Source: Candidatus Bathyarchaeia archaeon
GTDB lineage: Archaea; Thermoproteota; Bathyarchaeia; Bathyarchaeales; Bathycorpusculaceae
DNA: 53,737 bases
Assembly (NCBI GenBank): GCA_038883715.1
Contig: JAVZLS010000009.1
Span: forward strand, 1-53,737
Reading direction: 5' to 3'
The notes under the pieces were generated by a model, which saw only the letters and a program-made list of their open reading frames with translations, searched no databases and had not been told where the DNA came from. Positions 9,731 to 35,461 of the stretch are shown piece by piece. Positions within the stretch are counted from its first letter, which is position 1. Each line of letters begins with the position of its first letter. Both the position numbers and the translations under genes were made by a program.

Positions 9731-12055
9731 ATGGAAACAAAAAGCCTCTCCAAAAAAGAGCGAATAATCAACGCTTTCAAAAGCCTCGGAAAACTCCGCC
9801 CAAAAATAAGCCACACGTCAATAATGACCATTGCGACTTTAATACTTATAATTTTTATAGCCTTCGTGATACGGCTGTTTCCAATGCGATGGGAAATAGA
9901 CCCAACAACAGGCAAAACAAACCTTCTCTTATCAGAGTTTGACCCATACTTCCAATACCGCTTCACAGAAAAAATAGTTAAAGACGGCTTCATTTCATGG
10001 GCCATAGAAAACAATGGAAAAGGATGGATCGATAAGCAAAGATGGCACCCCGATGGAATAAACGTTGCCAAAGCCGCTTTCCCAGGGCTTCCAATGACAG
10101 CAGCCTTCCTCTATAAAATAGTTTCAATGCTTGGTGTAGGCATAGACCTAATGAGCTTCTGCGCCCTCTTCCCAGCCATCATGGGGGCATTGGCATGCCT
10201 CGCCATATACTTCCTTGGAAAAGACTTCGGCGGCAAACCAGTAGGCCTACTGGCTGCGCTTTTCTTAGCTTTAGAACCATCCTACATCCAACGGACATCA
10301 GTAGGCTTCTTTGATGACGAAACTATTGGCATATTTTCCCTCATACTTTTCGCCTTCCTATTCCTAAGGGCTATTGAGGAAGACAGGCAAATCAGCTCAA
10401 CTGTAAAATATGCCCTCGCCTCCGGAGCAGTTTTAGGCTACTTCTGCGCCGGGTGGGGCGCAGCCTATTACCCAATAGGCGTCATAACCCTATTCACATT
10501 GGTCTTACTAATTATGAAGAGGTATACACGGAAACTTTTCCTCGCCTACGGCGTAACTTTCGGGTTTGGTTTACTTATCGCCATAAATGTCCCAAAACTA
10601 TCACCAAACTATCTACTTACAAGCGCCATCTTGCCAGTTGCCGCCGTCTTTGGACTGCTTTGCCTAGCTGAAGTTATCACAAACATGAAAACAGCTAAAT
10701 GGAAAATTATATCTGTCATAGTTTTCCTAGCCCTCATTCTCGGCGGCGTCATAGCACTCTGGTATACGGGTCGCATGCAAGCAATATCCAGCAAATTCAT
10801 TTCTGTTCTAAATCCATTCACTCGCGAAGCTTCCCCACTTATCGAGTCTGTGGCTGAACATAGGATATCTGCATGGGGCTCCATATACTACGAATTTGGC
10901 ATCATGATAATCTTCTTCATAATTGGATTATTCTTTATTTTAGGAAACCTAAACAATAGAAACATATTCCTCCTCGTTTTCGGTTTAACATCTCTCTATT
11001 TTGCATGCTCAATGGTGCGGCTTTTTGTTCTTATGGCTCCAGCCTTCAGCCTCCTAGCCGCTGTTGGAATTAGCGGACTTCTGAAACCCTTTATGACATT
11101 GTTGAAAGAGCCGCCAAGAATAAGTGTTAAGAGAAAATTTGGACTGGAGCGTGTTGGAAGGGAGTTCAGCGGCATAGCAGTTTTCCTAATATTCCTAATA
11201 TTAATGGTGAACTTGGCTTTCCCAATGCCGAGGGTTTATACGCAAGCTTACACACCAACCACAATATCTGCAGGAAGCCTCTCAACACTACCGCAACAAC
11301 CTGTGCAAGAATGGATAAACATGTTTACATGGATGAGAAGCAATTTGAAAAGCTCAACCGTTGTATGTAGTTGGTGGGATTATGGATATTGGCTCACAGT
11401 TCTGGGAAACGTTACATCCTTGGCTGACAACGCCACCGTGAACACCACTCAGATAGAAAACATTGGCTTTATATTTATAGCCGATGAGGAACGGTCGATG
11501 GAAATGCTGAAACGCTATAAGGCTGAATACATACTTGTATACACAACTATAGACACTAATGGAAACTGGCTAAACGCAGGTGGAGATGAGGGTAAATGGA
11601 CCTGGATGGCCGCTATATCTGGGAATGCACGTTATCCCAACGGCACATCAAGGTTTGTTATAGAAGGCTTAATTACAGAGGATGAGATGTGGACGTCAGA
11701 TTTAAACAAAATCAGAGAAACCTTTGGGAACGTTACGCTGGGATGGAATAGTGCAAGCACAGGTGAGGTGGTACCCATCAACCCCTATATATTCGGCCGA
11801 AATCAACCAATATATGGAGAGCGGGTTAGCCGGGGGCAAAACTCAACAATTTATAAGCTGATGAACTATGCAAGGGAACGTTGGATCCAAGTGAACCGTC
11901 AACAAAGCTCAGCGCCGACAACACAGCTGATATACTTTGTCGAGGAGCGAATTGAAGGTTTAAACAACAAAAATGGGTATAACGGTGTTGTTCCACTTGT
12001 CTGCCTCTACAAAATAAACTGGGAAAAGTATTATAGCGAACATCCAAGCGGGTAA
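9731..12055 (+). CDS. aglB: Oligosaccharyltransferase catalytic subunit AglB/STT3
   Basis: EFDPYFQYR, GFFDDE, SVAEH, WWDYG, ADNAT, DEGKWTWM; multiple TM segments. Confidence 0.95.
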   Translation: METKSLSKKERIINAFKSLGKLRPKISHTSIMTIATLILIIFIAFVIRLFPMRWEIDPTTGKTNLLLSEFDPYFQYRFTEKIVKDGFISWAIENNGKGWIDKQRWHPDGINVAKAAFPGLPMTAAFLYKIVSMLGVGIDLMSFCALFPAIMGALACLAIYFLGKDFGGKPVGLLAALFLALEPSYIQRTSVGFFDDETIGIFSLILFAFLFLRAIEEDRQISSTVKYALASGAVLGYFCAGWGAAYYPIGVITLFTLVLLIMKRYTRKLFLAYGVTFGFGLLIAINVPKLSPNYLLTSAILPVAAVFGLLCLAEVITNMKTAKWKIISVIVFLALILGGVIALWYTGRMQAISSKFISVLNPFTREASPLIESVAEHRISAWGSIYYEFGIMIIFFIIGLFFILGNLNNRNIFLLVFGLTSLYFACSMVRLFVLMAPAFSLLAAVGISGLLKPFMTLLKEPPRISVKRKFGLERVGREFSGIAVFLIFLILMVNLAFPMPRVYTQAYTPTTISAGSLSTLPQQPVQEWINMFTWMRSNLKSSTVVCSWWDYGYWLTVLGNVTSLADNATVNTTQIENIGFIFIADEERSMEMLKRYKAEYILVYTTIDTNGNWLNAGGDEGKWTWMAAISGNARYPNGTSRFVIEGLITEDEMWTSDLNKIRETFGNVTLGWNSASTGEVVPINPYIFGRNQPIYGERVSRGQNSTIYKLMNYARERWIQVNRQQSSAPTTQLIYFVEERIEGLNNKNGYNGVVPLVCLYKINWEKYYSEHPSG

Positions 12056-12065
12056 GGGTCAGCAT

Positions 12066-12947
12066 TTGTTTCCAAAGGTTCCGGATCAGCATAAGCCTGG
12101 CAAGCCCTTGGTTCCAACTGGTTTAGGGGTAATATACGTCGTTGCGAGCGCTGCTTACCTTTTCTTTTTGCACGCTTTTGGATTTGATGTGGAATCTGCT
12201 GGTGGCGGTAATGTTTCTCCGGCTTTGACTTTGGCTGTTTGCATATTGTTTGGTGGTTTTATGGGTTTGCTGGATGACTGGATGGATTTGCGTTGGCGTT
12301 ACAAGGCTTTCTTTCCGCTGGTGGCAGCTGTTCCCTTGATGACTTTGGCTTACAGAATGGGTATTGCTCGCACAGCTATTACGCTTCCACTGTTAGGAAC
12401 CATTAATTTTGGCGTATACTATTTCTTTGTTTTGATCCCGCTGATTGTGATGGTGGTCACCAACACTGTTAATCAGCTGGGTGGCCTTAACGGTTTGGAA
12501 ACTGTTTGTCCCGCCATTGTTTTGGTTGGGCTTATGGTGGCTTCTGGAAGAAATGCTATTTTGTTAACGCTTCCTTTGGCTGTTTGGCTTGTGCTTGCCT
12601 TTTTCAATTTTCAGGGGAAGATTTTTGTTGGAAATACTGGCTCTTTTGCTATTGGAATAACCTTGGCGGCTTTTGCCATAATTTCCGATGTGAAGTGGTG
12701 TTTGTTGATCTCACTTGTACCATACATAATTAATTCTTCCATGATTTTGTTGAATTATTTCTTTTTCCGGACCAAGGCAAATGTCTCTTTTGACGGAAAA
12801 AGGCTTTTCTCGGAGCATAGGAGAAGCTTAATAACGCTTATAACTTATAGGCGGCCTATGACTGAGAGGAAAGTGGTTGTCACTATAGCCTTTTTGGTTG
12901 CTGTTTCAACTTTTGTCGCTGTTGTTGCCCAGCTTTTCCTGTTTTAG
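12066..12947 (+). CDS. aglH: MraY/GPT-family polyprenyl-phosphate HexNAc-1-P transferase (AglH/DPAGT1-like)
   Basis: DQHKPGKPLVP, GLLDD, NTVNQLGGLNGLE, KIFVGNTGS; directly downstream of aglB. Confidence 0.8.
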   Translation: MFPKVPDQHKPGKPLVPTGLGVIYVVASAAYLFFLHAFGFDVESAGGGNVSPALTLAVCILFGGFMGLLDDWMDLRWRYKAFFPLVAAVPLMTLAYRMGIARTAITLPLLGTINFGVYYFFVLIPLIVMVVTNTVNQLGGLNGLETVCPAIVLVGLMVASGRNAILLTLPLAVWLVLAFFNFQGKIFVGNTGSFAIGITLAAFAIISDVKWCLLISLVPYIINSSMILLNYFFFRTKANVSFDGKRLFSEHRRSLITLITYRRPMTERKVVVTIAFLVAVSTFVAVVAQLFLF

Positions 12948-13108: not shown

Positions 13109-13555
13109 GTGGATGTTACCAGTATTGTAGGGGTTAAGCTGGACGTTAAAGGTGGGGCTGGAACCGTCAATTTTGATGTTAAGGCTAGGCTTGAAGAGAA
13201 GGAAAGAAGAAGCCAAACAGTGGTTGTCGGTTTCAACCTCCAACTGACAACGAAGCCGGGCATTGTCAAATTTGAGGTGGAGGGCACCGCAACGCTTACG
13301 GGAAAAGATACGGAGATAAATAAGATGTTGGAGGTTGACCCCGAAACAAAGGTTCCCTACGTTTTCCAGAAAGTTTATCAGCATACCTTTACGGCTATGT
13401 ACCTGCTCTCGACCATTTTGAACACGCCTCCGCCGCCAATAGACCTTCTCCTTTTCAGAAGGGAAGAAGCGTCAGCTGAGGGCGTCTCTATCGAGCCTGA
13501 AGCAGCTGTAAAGGTTGAGGGCGAAGCTGCTGGAGAAGCGAAAAAAGAGGATTAA
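13109..13555 (+). CDS. Hypothetical protein, possible SecB-like fold, with acidic tail
   Basis: Alternating beta-strands (VVVGFNLQLTT, VKFEVEGTATL), then a helix and a PPPP motif, as in the SecB topology. Confidence 0.55.
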   Translation: MDVTSIVGVKLDVKGGAGTVNFDVKARLEEKERRSQTVVVGFNLQLTTKPGIVKFEVEGTATLTGKDTEINKMLEVDPETKVPYVFQKVYQHTFTAMYLLSTILNTPPPPIDLLLFRREEASAEGVSIEPEAAVKVEGEAAGEAKKED

Positions 13556-13566
13556 ACAAAAGAATG

Positions 13567-13574
13567 TTTTTATA
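13567..13574 (+). promoter_or_regulatory. TATA box of the queT transcription unit
   Basis: TTTTTATA about 25 nt upstream of the structured leader. Confidence 0.55.
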
Positions 13575-13595
13575 GTTGCCTTGCGGTATTGCTGT

Positions 13596-13660
13596 TTTGT
13601 TGGCGGGTGAGTGGGGCCTCCCACCCGTTCCGCCATACAAACCCCGGTGTAGGGAGGTGG
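13596..13660 (+). promoter_or_regulatory. Structured GC-rich 5' leader (candidate riboswitch) with SD GGGAGGTGG
   Basis: TTTGT-TGGCGG pairs with CCGCCA-T-ACAAA; inner GTGGG/CCCAC stem; CCTCCC (13617-13622) is complementary to the SD GGGAGG (13652-13657). Confidence 0.5.
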
Positions 13661-13664
13661 AAAA

Positions 13665-14231
13665 TTGAAGTTTGATAGCAAAGATTTAGCTTTGACAGCA
13701 ATTTTTGCAGCACTTTATGCCGTAATTAACATCGTGCAAACAATGATGGGCGGCCCAATAACGTATGGGCCGGTTCAGTTACGTCTGGCTGACTGTCTGA
13801 TAGCTTTGTCGGCGCTGTTTGGGTTGCCTGTGGTTCTAGGGGTTGCGATAGGCTGTTTCAGTAACGTGTATTATATGCTTGATCCAGCTGACATTATTAT
13901 AGGGCCAGTTGTGAATTTTGCGGCAGCTTTTGTTGTCTTTGTTTCGCGAAGACGGAAACTTTTGGCGTGTGTTTCTGGCTCCATTGTTGTTGGTGTTCCG
14001 ATTGGTTTGTACTTGTACTACCTCTACGTGCAAGGTAACCCGATTATCCAGCAGCAGACGCCGAATTTTGGAGTTTCACTTCCGTTATGGTCTGCGTTTG
14101 TCTTAAGCCTCCTAGTCAGCAGCCTGGTGGCCATAGCTGTTATAGGTTTTGCTCTGTTACAGGCACTGTCGAGGCAAGGCATTATTGACTCGTTGAAGGC
14201 ACGGGGATTAAAAGTGCTTGAAGGGAAGTAA
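13665..14231 (+). CDS. queT: QueT-family ECF S-component (queuosine/7-deazaguanine precursor transporter)
   Basis: DLALTAIFAALYAV...PITYGPVQLRLADCL...GVAIGCFSN...DIIIGP, typical of QueT (COG4708). Confidence 0.8.
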   Translation: MKFDSKDLALTAIFAALYAVINIVQTMMGGPITYGPVQLRLADCLIALSALFGLPVVLGVAIGCFSNVYYMLDPADIIIGPVVNFAAAFVVFVSRRRKLLACVSGSIVVGVPIGLYLYYLYVQGNPIIQQQTPNFGVSLPLWSAFVLSLLVSSLVAIAVIGFALLQALSRQGIIDSLKARGLKVLEGK

Positions 14232-14240
14232 CACTGCTGA

Positions 14241-16919
14241 TTACATGAAGCGTTCCAGTTTCGTCAAACCTATTATTTCGTCGAAGTCTAAGCCTAATGC
14301 GTCTAAAACTTGGTCGAAGGTGGAGTGCAAATAAGCCACGTACTTGTCTACGTCTATCTCATTTTTTGTTGCCAGTTCCACTGGTTTTACGTGAGGCTCG
14401 TTCACTACTTTTACAAAGCTTATTAGGTCTCCGGCTTTGAGTTCCATTCCGCTTTCTTTTAGGATTTTTGCGGCTTTCACGTGTTGTGGCGTTGTTTTTG
14501 TGTAGCGTTCTGGTTCTTCGCCTAATACTACGTTGAAGGCTAGTTCGTTTAGGCTTTCCCATTCTCGTCTTTTTAGGCGTATGTAGCAGTCGCGGATTGT
14601 TTGTATGATGTCTTTTTTGGCGGCTTCGAAGTCTGCCGGCGTTTTGACCATGGCTAGGCGCTCTTTCATTTTGTCGAAAGCCTTCTTGATGAATAGGGGG
14701 ATGTGACGTTTCTTGCCTGTCAAGCCCTTAACGTCAACGCTTCCATCTTCCAGAACGCCCAGATAGTTCTTTTTGCGGGAGCTGAAAACCGCGTAGCGGT
14801 AAACTTTGTCCACGTCTAAACCCATTTTCAGCTCGCGTTCAGTCCATTCTTCGAGTTCGTGTATCTGCTCTTTTGACGGGTTTTTTAGGAAGACGCTGTC
14901 TGTGTCGCCGTAAAGCACTTGGATGCCCAGCTCTTCAGCCCTCCTAATTATTTGGGTTATAGCGTGTCTTCCTATGGCTGCTGTTGCTTCGGCTACTGGT
15001 GGGCAGTATAAGTCGAAGGTTTCTGCTCCGAAAACGCCGTAGCTAGCGTTTAAAATAACTTTTAATGCACCTTGAATGATATTGTACCAGCTTCTAACCT
15101 CCGGTGGCAGAGCCTTATCCTTTGATTTTGGCTTATACCATTGGACTCGCAAGTCTCTAAGCGAGCCGATTAGGAGGCTTTCTAGGGCGCGTTTTTTGCG
15201 GCAGACCCAATGGGGTGTGTCTGGCACTAGGTTTGTTTGGCATTCCTTGTGCCCGCACAATATGGACTGGTAGCCTAAGTTCCAAACTTTTATTATTGAT
15301 GGGTATAGGCTTGGGAAATCCATTACCGCGACGTTGAAGTGGACGCCCGGTACTGGTTCAACAACTATGGCGCCCTTGTATTTTTTGCCCTTTATTATGG
15401 CTTTTGTGGCCGTCTTTCCCTTTAGGGCTAGTATATCTTCAGCGTTTGGAATAAGCATGTTTTTTCTGCGGTGTTCGCGGTGCATAAAGTTCCTTATCCA
15501 ACGGGAAACGCCTTGTCGGCTTACATCCTCCATCGGCATACTGCTTATTCTAGCCAAAACAAGAATCAGCTTCAAGACCAGCTCATCTTCGAAGCTTGTG
15601 AGTTTATAGGTGATTTCAGCGTCCCTGAAGCAGTATTTTGCGAGTTCCGTATATGTTAGTTCGCCTATTCCCTTTTCCAGCGTTATCTTGTCTAAGCCTA
15701 CAAGTGCCTTGCCAACATCGCCCAAAGTTACGTCTCGGTAGCGGTTGTTGAAGGCGTAAATTTGTATGGAGCGGTTGAAGAAGAACTTGTATAGGTCTAT
15801 GTGGACGCCATATTTTAGGAGGCAAACCCTCTTGCCAATTTCTATTGGAATTTCATCTCTCTTAAAGCCGTGGTTTTCTGCTCTATGCGCTAAATATCGT
15901 AGGTCAAAGTCGTCGCCGTTGAAGGTTATCACAAATGGGTAGTTCCATAAAACCTCAAAAACAGCCCTTATCAGCTTCTCTTCAGATTCAAAATATTCTA
16001 TCTGCACGTCTGCTGGTAAACGTTCTGTGCCTTCGCGAACTCCCTCCCTTTTTAAGAGGAGAACCCGCTTTTGCCCGTCTGAACTGTATAGAGAGACGCA
16101 GACTATTGGGTATGCCGCCTCGCGCGGGTCTGGCATCCGGGTTGGTATGGGCGAGTAAACCTCGATGTCCATGGTGATATAACGGAACTTTGGAGCTGGA
16201 TACTCGAGGAGCTTAGCCCACTGCTCAATATACTGGAGTTCTTCGTCGTCAGCCTCCTTGAAAGTGCCAACGATTTGCTGAACCATTTTCTCTGCTTCTT
16301 CTACGTGTTTTGGCACAAGATTGCCATTTTTAACTTCGTAAACCATGCCGGGCAAAAGTCCACGGTCATAAATGTAGGATTGGTAATACTTTATCTTGGA
16401 CTCCCAAACCTTGATGGATTCTGCGGAGACCGGGACGTCTGCAATTTTTGGAAAGTCTTCTGGAATAATGTCTCTTATGCAGCCCCTTGGGCGCCCCCCA
16501 ATTGCCAGCGGGTCTTTAGCAATAATCTTTGTCACTTTGACAGGTTTATCCAGAAGGGGATCAAACTTCTCCTCAATCTCGAAGTGGTCGAAGCCCGGAT
16601 GCTTCATTAAACGGTCAATTTTTTCAAGCTCGAATGGCGAAAGGTTTGTGTAGCAGTAGGGCTTATGCCCAGTGTTATCATACCAGAAGTAGATTCGCCC
16701 AGAAACAGGCTCGTAAAGCTTGATTAGGGCTTTTCCAGCTTTGCCATCATAAGTGGCTGAAACAAAATATGAAGGAGGAAGGTTTTCCGGTGCCGTTGGC
16801 GGAAAACCCCTCTGTTTTCGCTCTTTTTCTATGGATTCTGTGAAGGGTAAGGCTTCCCCTTTGACTTCTTGAGGTTTAGCCACTGACATTGAAAACTCGT
16901 CTAAGCGCCTTTGAGCCAT
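14241..16919 (-). CDS. polB1: Family B DNA polymerase, PolB1 type
   Basis: ExoI DIEV, ExoII FNGDDFD, ExoIII YCFRDA, DFPSLYPS, KVILNASYG, YGDTDS, KKNY; N-terminal 'WYDNTGHKPY' as in TACK PolB1. Confidence 0.93.
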   Translation of the reverse strand: MAQRRLDEFSMSVAKPQEVKGEALPFTESIEKERKQRGFPPTAPENLPPSYFVSATYDGKAGKALIKLYEPVSGRIYFWYDNTGHKPYCYTNLSPFELEKIDRLMKHPGFDHFEIEEKFDPLLDKPVKVTKIIAKDPLAIGGRPRGCIRDIIPEDFPKIADVPVSAESIKVWESKIKYYQSYIYDRGLLPGMVYEVKNGNLVPKHVEEAEKMVQQIVGTFKEADDEELQYIEQWAKLLEYPAPKFRYITMDIEVYSPIPTRMPDPREAAYPIVCVSLYSSDGQKRVLLLKREGVREGTERLPADVQIEYFESEEKLIRAVFEVLWNYPFVITFNGDDFDLRYLAHRAENHGFKRDEIPIEIGKRVCLLKYGVHIDLYKFFFNRSIQIYAFNNRYRDVTLGDVGKALVGLDKITLEKGIGELTYTELAKYCFRDAEITYKLTSFEDELVLKLILVLARISSMPMEDVSRQGVSRWIRNFMHREHRRKNMLIPNAEDILALKGKTATKAIIKGKKYKGAIVVEPVPGVHFNVAVMDFPSLYPSIIKVWNLGYQSILCGHKECQTNLVPDTPHWVCRKKRALESLLIGSLRDLRVQWYKPKSKDKALPPEVRSWYNIIQGALKVILNASYGVFGAETFDLYCPPVAEATAAIGRHAITQIIRRAEELGIQVLYGDTDSVFLKNPSKEQIHELEEWTERELKMGLDVDKVYRYAVFSSRKKNYLGVLEDGSVDVKGLTGKKRHIPLFIKKAFDKMKERLAMVKTPADFEAAKKDIIQTIRDCYIRLKRREWESLNELAFNVVLGEEPERYTKTTPQHVKAAKILKESGMELKAGDLISFVKVVNEPHVKPVELATKNEIDVDKYVAYLHSTFDQVLDALGLDFDEIIGLTKLERFM

Positions 16920-34666: not shown

Positions 34667-35461
34667 TTAAGCCAAGCCTGTTAAGATTTCTTCTAAACGT
34701 GGAATTCGGAGGTATAGGCGGACTAGGATTGCGGCGGCTAAAATGCCGATGGTTAGAAATATGAAGATGTAGTCGCTTCTCCGCAGTTTCAAAACATAGA
34801 GGTTTGTACGCTTTTTCACTGCCCCCCAAGCGCGGGACTCCATGGCTTCAGCCAGTTCGAGGCTTCTGCGGATTGCACTAACAATAAGCGGTATGAGAAT
34901 CGGAATGTAGTTTCTAATCCGCTTTAGGAAGTTGCCCTTTTCAAGCTCTAGGCCTCTTGCCTTTTGGGCGTCCATGATGGTTTGGGCTTCCTCGGCTAGG
35001 ACTGGGACGAAGCGCACAGCTGTTGTGAAGGCGAAGCAGAACTCGTATGGCACGTGGGATTGCTCCAGGGCTAAGCCAAGATGGTCCGGCGACGTTGTTA
35101 AGAAGAATATGGAGAAGGATTCTACGAGAACCAAGAAACGCAGCGTCATGGACAGAGCGTGTTCTAATGCCGACAGTGTAACTACATAGCCGGAGCTTAT
35201 GAAGGAGAATATGAAGTTGACGAAAAATATTATGGACGCCAAGAAGGCGGCGCCTCTCATGGAGCGTGCCCACTCCCGCTTGACACGAGCAACTATAACG
35301 AAGGGAATCTGCATCAGAAAAAGCACAATTAGTGGCAGTAGCTCCCAGAAAAGTATGGCGACAACAAAAATCACACATGCATAAACAAACTTTATTCTTG
35401 GGTCTAGATTGTGAATGGGAGAGCTGACCCTTCTGAAGCGTAGTCCGTCAAAAAAGCTCAT
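34667..35461 (-). CDS. ecfT: ECF transporter transmembrane component EcfT
   Basis: LDPRIK, LTTSP, RFVP, AQKARG, AMESR. Confidence 0.92.
   Translation of the reverse strand: MSFFDGLRFRRVSSPIHNLDPRIKFVYACVIFVVAILFWELLPLIVLFLMQIPFVIVARVKREWARSMRGAAFLASIIFFVNFIFSFISSGYVVTLSALEHALSMTLRFLVLVESFSIFFLTTSPDHLGLALEQSHVPYEFCFAFTTAVRFVPVLAEEAQTIMDAQKARGLELEKGNFLKRIRNYIPILIPLIVSAIRRSLELAEAMESRAWGAVKKRTNLYVLKLRRSDYIFIFLTIGILAAAILVRLYLRIPRLEEILTGLA

Follow-up and report, generated by a model that had tools for sequence, protein, structure and literature searches.

A candidate archaeal translational riboswitch in the leader of the 7-deazaguanine transporter gene queT

Introduction

Several known riboswitches control translation by folding the Shine-Dalgarno (SD) sequence into a pseudoknot. 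The preQ1-I riboswitch folds as a small H-type pseudoknot of about 34–45 nt: its first stem has 5 bp, its first loop is very short, its third loop is A-rich, and the 3' strand of its second stem overlaps the SD. In the preQ1-II and preQ1-III riboswitches, which are also pseudoknotted leaders, an upstream loop base-pairs with the SD region; bacterial examples precede queT-type (COG4708) transporter genes. SAM-II and SAM-V are compact H-type pseudoknots with the SD in the 3' strand and the ligand at the helix junction or groove, and they repress translation. In archaea, thiamine pyrophosphate (TPP) and fluoride riboswitches act in cis as mRNA leaders; to our knowledge the archaeal riboswitches described so far are few, and all belong to classes first defined in bacteria. 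Here we describe a conserved RNA element of ~70 nt in the leader of the archaeal transporter gene queT, found in a 53,737-nt stretch of DNA from a Candidatus Bathyarchaeia archaeon (contig JAVZLS010000009.1 of assembly GCA_038883715.1, forward strand), which is referred to below as the window.

Among the described systems, preQ1-I (RF00522) has the topology closest to that of the queT-leader element. Both are translational leaders before queuosine or 7-deazaguanine genes, including queT, and both have an H-type topology with a 5-bp stem P1, an A-rich loop L3 and the SD in the second stem (general background on the preQ1-I side); ligand-stabilised sequestration of the SD would likewise be expected here. 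The queT-leader element differs in its length (~70 positions versus 45 in the RF00522 model), in a loop L1 of ~10 nt that can fold as a competing hairpin, in a second stem of ~11–12 bp, in junction bases (GUG, UU, AAA and CC) unlike those of preQ1-I, and in being archaeal. With preQ1-II (RF01054) and preQ1-III (RF02680) it shares the arrangement of an SD-pairing pseudoknotted leader before queT, but those models miss the queT leader, and size and helix layout differ. The proposed mode of action is like that of SAM-II and SAM-V, whereas sequence, presumed ligand and gene context are unrelated, and the leader has no Rfam match. The TPP and fluoride riboswitches of archaea belong to bacterial-defined classes; in contrast, the queT-leader motif appeared only in archaeal records among those searched. 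In some cases queT lies downstream of preQ1 riboswitches (PMC5372724).

We propose that the queT leader is an OFF riboswitch of a new class and acts on translation: preQ0 or a close 7-deazaguanine would stabilise a pseudoknot that buries the SD. Based on comparative analysis of the leader and its relatives, we put the probability of this reading at about 0.72. A preliminary description of the same DNA had suggested a new archaeal ligand-sensing switch at this locus; conservation, covariation, gene context and the lack of an Rfam match support it as a candidate.

Results

Two mutually exclusive folds of the queT leader

Bases of the RNA element are numbered from window position 13596, which is base 1. 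The element and the gene that it precedes comprise the following parts, and all the sequence strings quoted for them in the preliminary description were located exactly where it had placed them.

13596–13669, + strand: whole conserved RNA element, ~70 nt, matched by covariance model R1
13602–13606 (bases 7–11), + strand: 5' strand of P1, GGCGG, pairing with 13630–13634
13607–13610, + strand: start of loop L1, GUGA (G in 93, U in 94, G in 88, and A in 69 or G in 23 of 94 sequences)
13611–13615 (bases 16–20), + strand: 5' strand of hairpin P2, GUGGG, pairing with 13620–13624 and competing with the SD region for the anti-SD strand
13617–13627 (bases 22–32), + strand: 5' strand of the pseudoknot, anti-SD CCUCCC followed by ACCCG, pairing with 13645–13657
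13628–13629, + strand: UU, loop L2 between the pseudoknot strand and the 3' strand of P1 (U in 89/94 and 94/94)
13630–13634 (bases 35–39), + strand: 3' strand of P1, CCGCC, supported by covariation
13635–13644, + strand: loop L3, an A-rich linker ending in CC, with conserved A at 13637, AAA at 13639–13641 and CC at 13643–13644
13645–13657 (bases 50–62), + strand: 3' strand of the pseudoknot, CGG, GU and the SD GGGAGG at 13652–13657, supported by covariation and duplex energies
13665–14231, + strand: queT coding sequence, TTG start, 188 aa, encoding the S component of an energy-coupling factor (ECF) transporter

The strand 13617–13627 pairs with the tail of the leader in a helix with a duplex energy of −18.7 kcal/mol, which has 11 listed pairs, or 12 when folded as a duplex, and is interrupted by two 1-nt bulges; 7 nt separate the SD within it from the TTG start. 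In alignment A3 the tail columns were placed by sequence alone and fitted to no pairing; there, P1 and the pseudoknot together had 92.9% of cells paired and a covariation of 0.195, compared with 0.107 in shuffled alignments (reached in 0 of 500) and at most 0.096 in slid controls. Cognate loop–tail duplexes from 93 distinct pairs had a mean energy of −16.2 kcal/mol versus −14.0 kcal/mol for non-cognate ones, a value that none of 10,000 permutations matched. Compensated anti-SD/SD variants were found in both flanks and core of the helix (L088, L136 versus L142, L076, L127, L201, L202 and L204), and pairing was kept with a non-canonical SD strand in L188, L239, L198, L305, L330 and L331. The top mutual-information pairs included 7–39, 17–28, 11–35, 29–54 and 24–60 (alignment columns 7–62, 17–50, 11–58, 51–84 and 28–92, respectively), and the scan showed no long-range tertiary pair beyond the proposed helices and neighbouring columns. 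The preliminary description had listed the pairing of the anti-SD CCTCCC (13617–13622) with the SD GGGAGG (13652–13657) among several competing ones. This pairing covaries, but the extent of the helix had been drawn too small: at ~11–12 bp it is the main long-range structure and no minor competitor.

P1 is a 5-bp stem with 99.0% of cells paired; at the outer pair, 67 sequences have G-C, 20 have A-U and 4 have G-U, and at the inner pair 87 have G-C and 9 have C-G. P2, which varies in length, had 92.6% of cells paired; at its second pair, U-A occurs 69 times, G-C 7 times and C-G 4 times. Taken together, P1 and P2 had 96.3% of cells paired and a covariation of 0.213 versus a shuffled mean of 0.084 (reached in 0 of 500), with slid controls at or below 0.085. 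The sequence of the P2 5' strand resembles the tail segment 13649–13654.

P2 corresponds to an inner stem (GTGGG/CCCAC in 13611–13624) that had already been recognised from the single sequence. The outer stem drawn at the same time (13596–13606 with 13630–13641) holds in its inner five pairs, which are P1 and covary; the extension (13596–13601 with 13635–13641) is unconserved beyond near relatives, alignment columns 1–6 vary freely, and most of this extension may lie outside the transcript, given its predicted start. Two other pairings had been suggested as competitors, CGGGTG (13604–13609) with CACCCG (13622–13627) and GGGG (13613–13616) with CCCC (13642–13645). Scored as conserved structure they covaried no better than shuffles (0.057 versus 0.055, reached in 63 of 500), and we discarded them. 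Nine sequences with a swapped inner P1 pair break the 11–52 pair of these alternatives, and P1 compensates in 9/9; the swap is therefore incompatible with the CGGGTG/CACCCG register.

Bases 25–29 (13620–13624) form the 3' strand of P2 and are also part of the 5' strand of the pseudoknot, and hence the two folds are mutually exclusive. The leader is thus a structured 5' region with three covarying helices (P1, P2 and the pseudoknot) and, computationally, an expression platform with alternative folds, of which P2 leaves the SD free and the pseudoknot hides it.

Among 94 distinct sequences, about 15 bases were invariant or nearly so although neither fold pairs them. In L3 these counts were 93/94 for A42, 93, 94 and 94/94 for A44–A46, and 94 and 94/94 for C48 and C49. 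Such invariant unpaired bases typically mark ligand-binding cores, which suggests one here, and in the pseudoknot fold they all converge on the P1/pseudoknot junction. Six sequences (L201–L205 and L243; for example L201:201–272, + strand) form a divergent subtype that has no P2 and whose tail is without the GG at G51 and G52. P1 and the invariant bases are retained in this subtype, as is an anti-SD:SD helix with full compensation; the junction reads CCGCU in 4/6 members, and P1 can be extended by four pairs. That these members keep the compensated helix without P2 is the chief ground for taking the pseudoknot fold as the conserved, and presumably ligand-bound, state. The QueT proteins encoded behind the divergent subtype are short and divergent, about 160–176 aa, and the subtype may have a different specificity.

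The gene behind the leader

The open reading frame (ORF) at 13665–14231 was assigned to QueT by Pfam PF06177 with 73 bits against a cut-off of 33.7 (E 4e-20), above the gathering threshold and covering profile positions 1–140 of 141, which bears out the earlier naming of the gene as queT. The same ORF had no match among NCBIfam models. In the host genome (1.33 Mb, 90.3% complete) it was the sole QueT match. At five loci of the motif (L165, L166, L111, L304 and L233) the place where a start codon would be expected behind the SD is taken, in the queT frame, by codons such as CTG, ACG or ATA instead of ATG, GTG or TTG; this suggests non-canonical starts, or ORF calls that miss such genes.

Conservation and distribution of the motif

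A covariance model, R1, was built from alignment A1 with 57 distinct motif copies. It matched the window copy with 89.1 bits (E 8e-26), the only strong match in the 1.33-Mb genome, where the next-best matches had E 0.14 and E 0.9. A QueT protein search of 41 related genomes gave a homologue in 35. Among the 30 QueT loci returned, which had been found via this protein search alone, the motif stood directly before the gene or operon in 29, and the thirtieth was cut at the 5' end of the gene. The motif (~60–70 nt) was kept even where QueT identity was only about 37–50%. Conserved and covarying structure upstream of queT orthologues, on which the preliminary description had made its proposal depend, is therefore present across the archaeal class and beyond it.

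Within the window's class, R1 found the motif in 93/151 sampled genomes. In a phylum-wide sample it was found in 29/151 genomes, and outside the class there were matches in 16 of ~131, which fell in families f44 (9/15), f56 (3/3), f60 (2/2), f64 and f51; the f51 match was rejected as false. A pattern scan with one genome per species gave the full motif in 39/120 stretches. By public title nearly all of these were metagenome-assembled genomes (MAGs) of Candidatus Bathyarchaeota or Bathyarchaeia; the exceptions were a single MAG of Methanomethylicota and a few whose titles read Nitrososphaerota or Nitrososphaeria. The remaining 81 stretches came from high-GC bacteria, matched the loose pattern by chance and had no A-rich/CCCGG tail. 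The corresponding scan of metagenomes gave 50 genuine copies in 120 stretches, and the remaining 70 were dropped for lack of the same tail. In viral contigs the full motif was present in 0/34 pattern stretches. Hence, within the collections searched, the full motif was found only in archaeal records, the covariance-model sampling covering one phylum. By public title the records came from varied sources, among them a bog, a MAG of Bathycorpusculum and contigs from sediment and soil metagenomes; the runs containing the window DNA were labelled as hot-spring metagenomes.

Three genomes (G100, G130 and G155) carried two or three strong motif copies each, and the copies fetched from multi-copy genomes each stood before a different QueT paralogue (e.g. 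L181 and L215; L188 and L197). In runs with the hot-spring label, the summed contig depth was more than 10-fold higher over the conserved core 13606–13639 (in X3, about 3681 versus about 236). This spike consists of contigs from many co-occurring relatives that match only that stretch, at which assemblies tend to break.

Some loci were handled separately in the counts. L245 and L246, which score 21–23 bits and lie upstream of a V-ATPase-like and an unrelated gene, were judged false; the gene-context, promoter, base-conservation and cognate-duplex counts exclude them, and the covariation counts still include them. L184, truncated by the end of its contig, does not enter the cognate-duplex and base-conservation counts, and L206–L209 (about 19–20 bits) were used in no count.

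Genes downstream of the motif

Among 184 distinct copies of the motif, the first downstream gene was QueT-like in 175; three copies precede a QueE-like gene and another three an ECF-S-like membrane protein, in two the downstream DNA was too short, and one had no match. The QueE-like genes are found at L057, L064 and L270. At L064 the order is motif, QueE-like gene and QueC (119.7 bits), and the best matches of the QueE-like gene were five QueE NCBIfam models at 60–108 bits, all under their cut-offs. At L018 (271–2590, + strand) the motif is followed by queT, queC (209.5 bits), a second queT and an HD-domain gene, and at L157 (375–1574, − strand) by queT and queC (230.8 bits). The pairing of queT with queC without QueD or QueE suggests salvage of 7-carboxy-7-deazaguanine (CDG) rather than of preQ0.

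The membrane protein behind the motif in L168:1569–2264 (+ strand), L222:272–973 (+ strand) and L336 has ~232 aa and no Pfam or NCBIfam match. A language-model look-up placed it beside archaeal ECF S-component clusters with a score of 0.94, which serves as a lead only, and the protein may be an undescribed 7-deazaguanine transporter. Some of the motif copies with the inner P1 pair swapped from G-C to C-G are those before this protein.

Every context of the motif belongs to 7-deazaguanine metabolism, and the motif is tied to this one pathway through more than one gene family (QueT, QueE and ECF-S-like, with queC further downstream in L064, L018 and L157). The presence of the motif before queE and queE-queC, and of queC after motif-led queT, makes the 7-deazaguanine link stronger than could have been known from the window alone.

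Promoter and predicted transcript start

Two further features lie at the 5' end of the element.

13567–13574, + strand: TATA-like box TTTTTATA, identified by sequence and by its fixed spacing to P1
13595–13600, + strand: predicted transcription start, ~5 nt before P1, placed from the TATA–P1 spacing and the usual archaeal distance

A near-perfect TATA-like 8-mer was present in 76/135 distinct upstream regions. In 62 of these 76 it starts 31–38 nt before the first base of P1, with a mode of 35, which is the spacing in the window. Together with this fixed TATA–P1 spacing, the usual archaeal distance from the TATA box to the start would place the start ~5 nt before P1, and the mRNA would then begin with the element.

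The read evidence consists of assembled contigs only, and so it is silent on start, strand and expression level. Two runs are labelled 'metatranscriptomic', and their contents are probably DNA.

Comparison with known riboswitch families

Window positions 13300–13900 were compared with all 4227 families of Rfam 15 at E ≤10, which gave four chance-level matches (E 2.9–9.7) and no riboswitch. Ten divergent motif members likewise matched no Rfam family at E ≤5. The covariance models for preQ1-I, preQ1-II and preQ1-III, which the preliminary description had named for comparison with the leader, gave no match: RF00522, RF01054 and RF02680, run genome-wide at E ≤1, left it unmatched. RF00522 and RF01054 each exceeded their cut-off in one control genome. 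RF02680 had no match anywhere in the host genome at E ≤1, a result with a weak control since none of the control genomes was over its cut-off. The only preQ1-II match in the host genome is below threshold (27.9 bits versus 47) and on another contig (G000:C7:9505–9595, − strand); it lies inside a 347-aa ORF and was judged to be chance. The full-text literature searched gave no description of an archaeal preQ/queT riboswitch, and the supplementary motif lists of surveys (e.g. PMC2864571) may contain the motif.

Host pathway and neighbouring genes

The host genome encodes the archaeal tRNA-guanine transglycosylase arcTGT (280.6 bits). Its best QueC-family match had 29.9 bits and lay in a 518-aa frame, QueC-family matches being found in frames of about 500 aa, whereas true QueC, at 209–231 bits, was found in 5/41 relatives. 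PTPS/QueD was not found, and QueE gave only weak radical-SAM matches, both in a genome 90.3% complete. The window also holds an EcfT gene of the CbiQ family (34805–35425, − strand; 118.5 bits), so the QueT S component has an energy-coupling module available to it in the host genome. From this gene content the host looks like a preQ0 auxotroph with arcTGT, for which a completeness of 90% is no proof. The content fits an organism that depends on imported preQ0 to make archaeosine and would repress its importer at times of ample precursor.

Upstream of queT, the intergenic stretch 13556–13664 separates the gene from a 148-aa ORF (13109–13555, + strand), which has an acidic C-terminal tail and no Pfam match. 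In several near relatives the C-terminal coding end of this ORF lies in the same place, just upstream of the motif promoter. The neighbouring ORFs span 9731–12947 (+ strand) and 14241–16919 (− strand). Among the neighbours, a GT4-family glycosyltransferase was identified by a match to PF00953; a 774-aa membrane protein resembles an AglB-type oligosaccharyltransferase and an 892-aa ORF convergent with queT resembles a family-B DNA polymerase, both by reading of the sequence only.

Discussion

Proposed mechanism

In the mechanism that we propose, P1 (13602–13606/13630–13634) encloses a loop whose 3' half (13617–13627) has two exclusive partners. With the 5' half of the loop (13611–13615) it forms P2, leaving the SD free, and with the tail (13645–13657) it forms an H-type pseudoknot of ~11–12 bp in which the SD GGGAGG is buried. 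A 7-deazaguanine, most likely preQ0, which is the substrate of arcTGT, would bind at the P1/pseudoknot junction in a pocket lined by the invariant GUG (13607–13609), UU (13628–13629), AAA (13639–13641) and CC (13643–13644). The ligand would lock the pseudoknot and thereby turn translation of the transporter off, and in other genomes that of queE and queC likewise. In this scheme we infer the transcript start, the ligand-binding fold, the OFF logic and the identity of the ligand.

By calculated energy, P1 with P2 reaches −17.7 kcal/mol and P1 alone −8.0 kcal/mol, and the pseudoknot helix reaches −15.1 kcal/mol as a long-range hairpin, the last value being approximate as it includes neither a pseudoknot model nor a pseudoknot penalty. 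On these values the two folds would be roughly equal in stability, as a switch needs.

The approximate nature of the pseudoknot energy is one of several points that weigh against an OFF riboswitch of this kind. Folded alone, the leader does form the hairpin, with a z-score of −1.29 and 20/200 shuffles folding equally well or better; this is an ordinary value, so single-sequence folding gives no evidence. Alignment A3 was fitted to P1 and P2 and so favours that structure, and the shuffle tests overstate significance because the sequences are related. In the pseudoknot itself, columns 50–87 and 51–84 had 27 and 21 of ~85 cells scored as unpaired, probably due to varying bulge length. The junction pairs 13625–13627/13645–13647 (30–32/50–52) show no double change, only one-sided C-to-U changes (6 and 1); these putative CCG/CGG pairs beside the P1/pseudoknot junction are complementary and invariant, so that covariation cannot bear on them. 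An alternative partner for 13625–13627 is 13607–13610, which would extend P1, and the divergent subgroup seems to use it. One RNA-library contig of a relative covers the motif and extends 66 nt upstream of P1, which conflicts with a start 5 nt before P1 unless it reflects DNA carry-over, and the two are indistinguishable. Finally, gene context cannot separate preQ0 from CDG, preQ1 or archaeosine base as the ligand.

Alternative explanations

Among the other explanations, the one that survives best, unlikely as we consider it, is that no ligand is sensed: the SD-hiding pseudoknot would simply set a low level of translation, or a protein or temperature would open it. The pseudoknot helix is stable on its own, as its duplex energy of −18.7 kcal/mol indicates, and the hot-spring label of the runs with the window DNA would suit a response to temperature. 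A plain occluding helix or an RNA thermometer has no need, however, of about 15 unpaired bases kept invariant or nearly so across a class-level range, and the motif is tied to one pathway across three gene families. The varied sources of the motif (bog, Bathycorpusculum MAG, sediment and soil metagenomes) argue against a thermometer in particular, and against a protein site stands the lack of a tandem G-A k-turn signature in the leader, which was looked for by eye only and not with a tool.

An ON switch seems slightly less likely again. Here the ligand would stabilise P1–P2, maybe with a short CCG/CGG contact, so that the anti-SD strand remains sequestered, the SD is free and the transporter is induced by the precursor. 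Covariation is as good for P2 as for the pseudoknot, the internal loop that invariant GUGA and CCGUU form between P1 and P2 is a possible pocket, and P2 and the three junction pairs do not overlap. The six divergent members weigh against this reading, since they are without P2 and keep the invariant bases and the compensated anti-SD:SD helix. Furthermore, the invariant A-rich/CC linker is without an obvious role in a plain hairpin, and product-induced queE-queC biosynthesis would be unusual logic.

That the element is a divergent member of preQ1-I, preQ1-II or preQ1-III is very improbable: it has a preQ1-I-like H-type topology, with the 5-bp first stem, A-rich third loop and SD in the second stem familiar from that class, but the leader and ten divergent members match no Rfam family, RF00522, RF01054 and RF02680 miss the leader genome-wide, and the element is about twice the length of the 45-position RF00522 model. 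It shares its gene context with bacterial preQ1 riboswitches, behind which queT is sometimes found (PMC5372724).

Significance

Compared with these alternatives, an OFF riboswitch for preQ0 or a close 7-deazaguanine remains the explanation that we favour. More tentatively, and at odds that we place a little short of even, the element may be a fourth, structurally distinct class of 7-deazaguanine aptamer, the first archaea-only riboswitch class in the collections searched, and one tuned to preQ0 and not to preQ1. Three candidate subtypes can be distinguished: the main form, one with C-G in place of G-C as its inner P1 pair (in some copies before the ECF-S-like protein), and one that lacks both P2 and the tail GG. 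Such subtypes may discriminate between 7-deazapurines (preQ0 versus CDG) for paralogous QueT transporters and queT-queC salvage operons.

If the proposal is true, a widespread motif confined to archaea in the records searched would show that archaea evolved metabolite-sensing RNAs of their own. It would also add a new RNA architecture for 7-deazaguanines, possibly the first tuned to preQ0, which would be useful for comparing the structures of small aptamers. Being short (about 70 nt) and acting on the SD, the element is a possible compact regulatory part. For the organisms themselves, the finding points to salvage of preQ0 (or CDG) as a regulated and widespread trait of uncultured Bathyarchaeia-type archaea without queC, queD and queE, and it predicts that, in sediments, soils and hot springs, precursors of tRNA modification are shared by cross-feeding.

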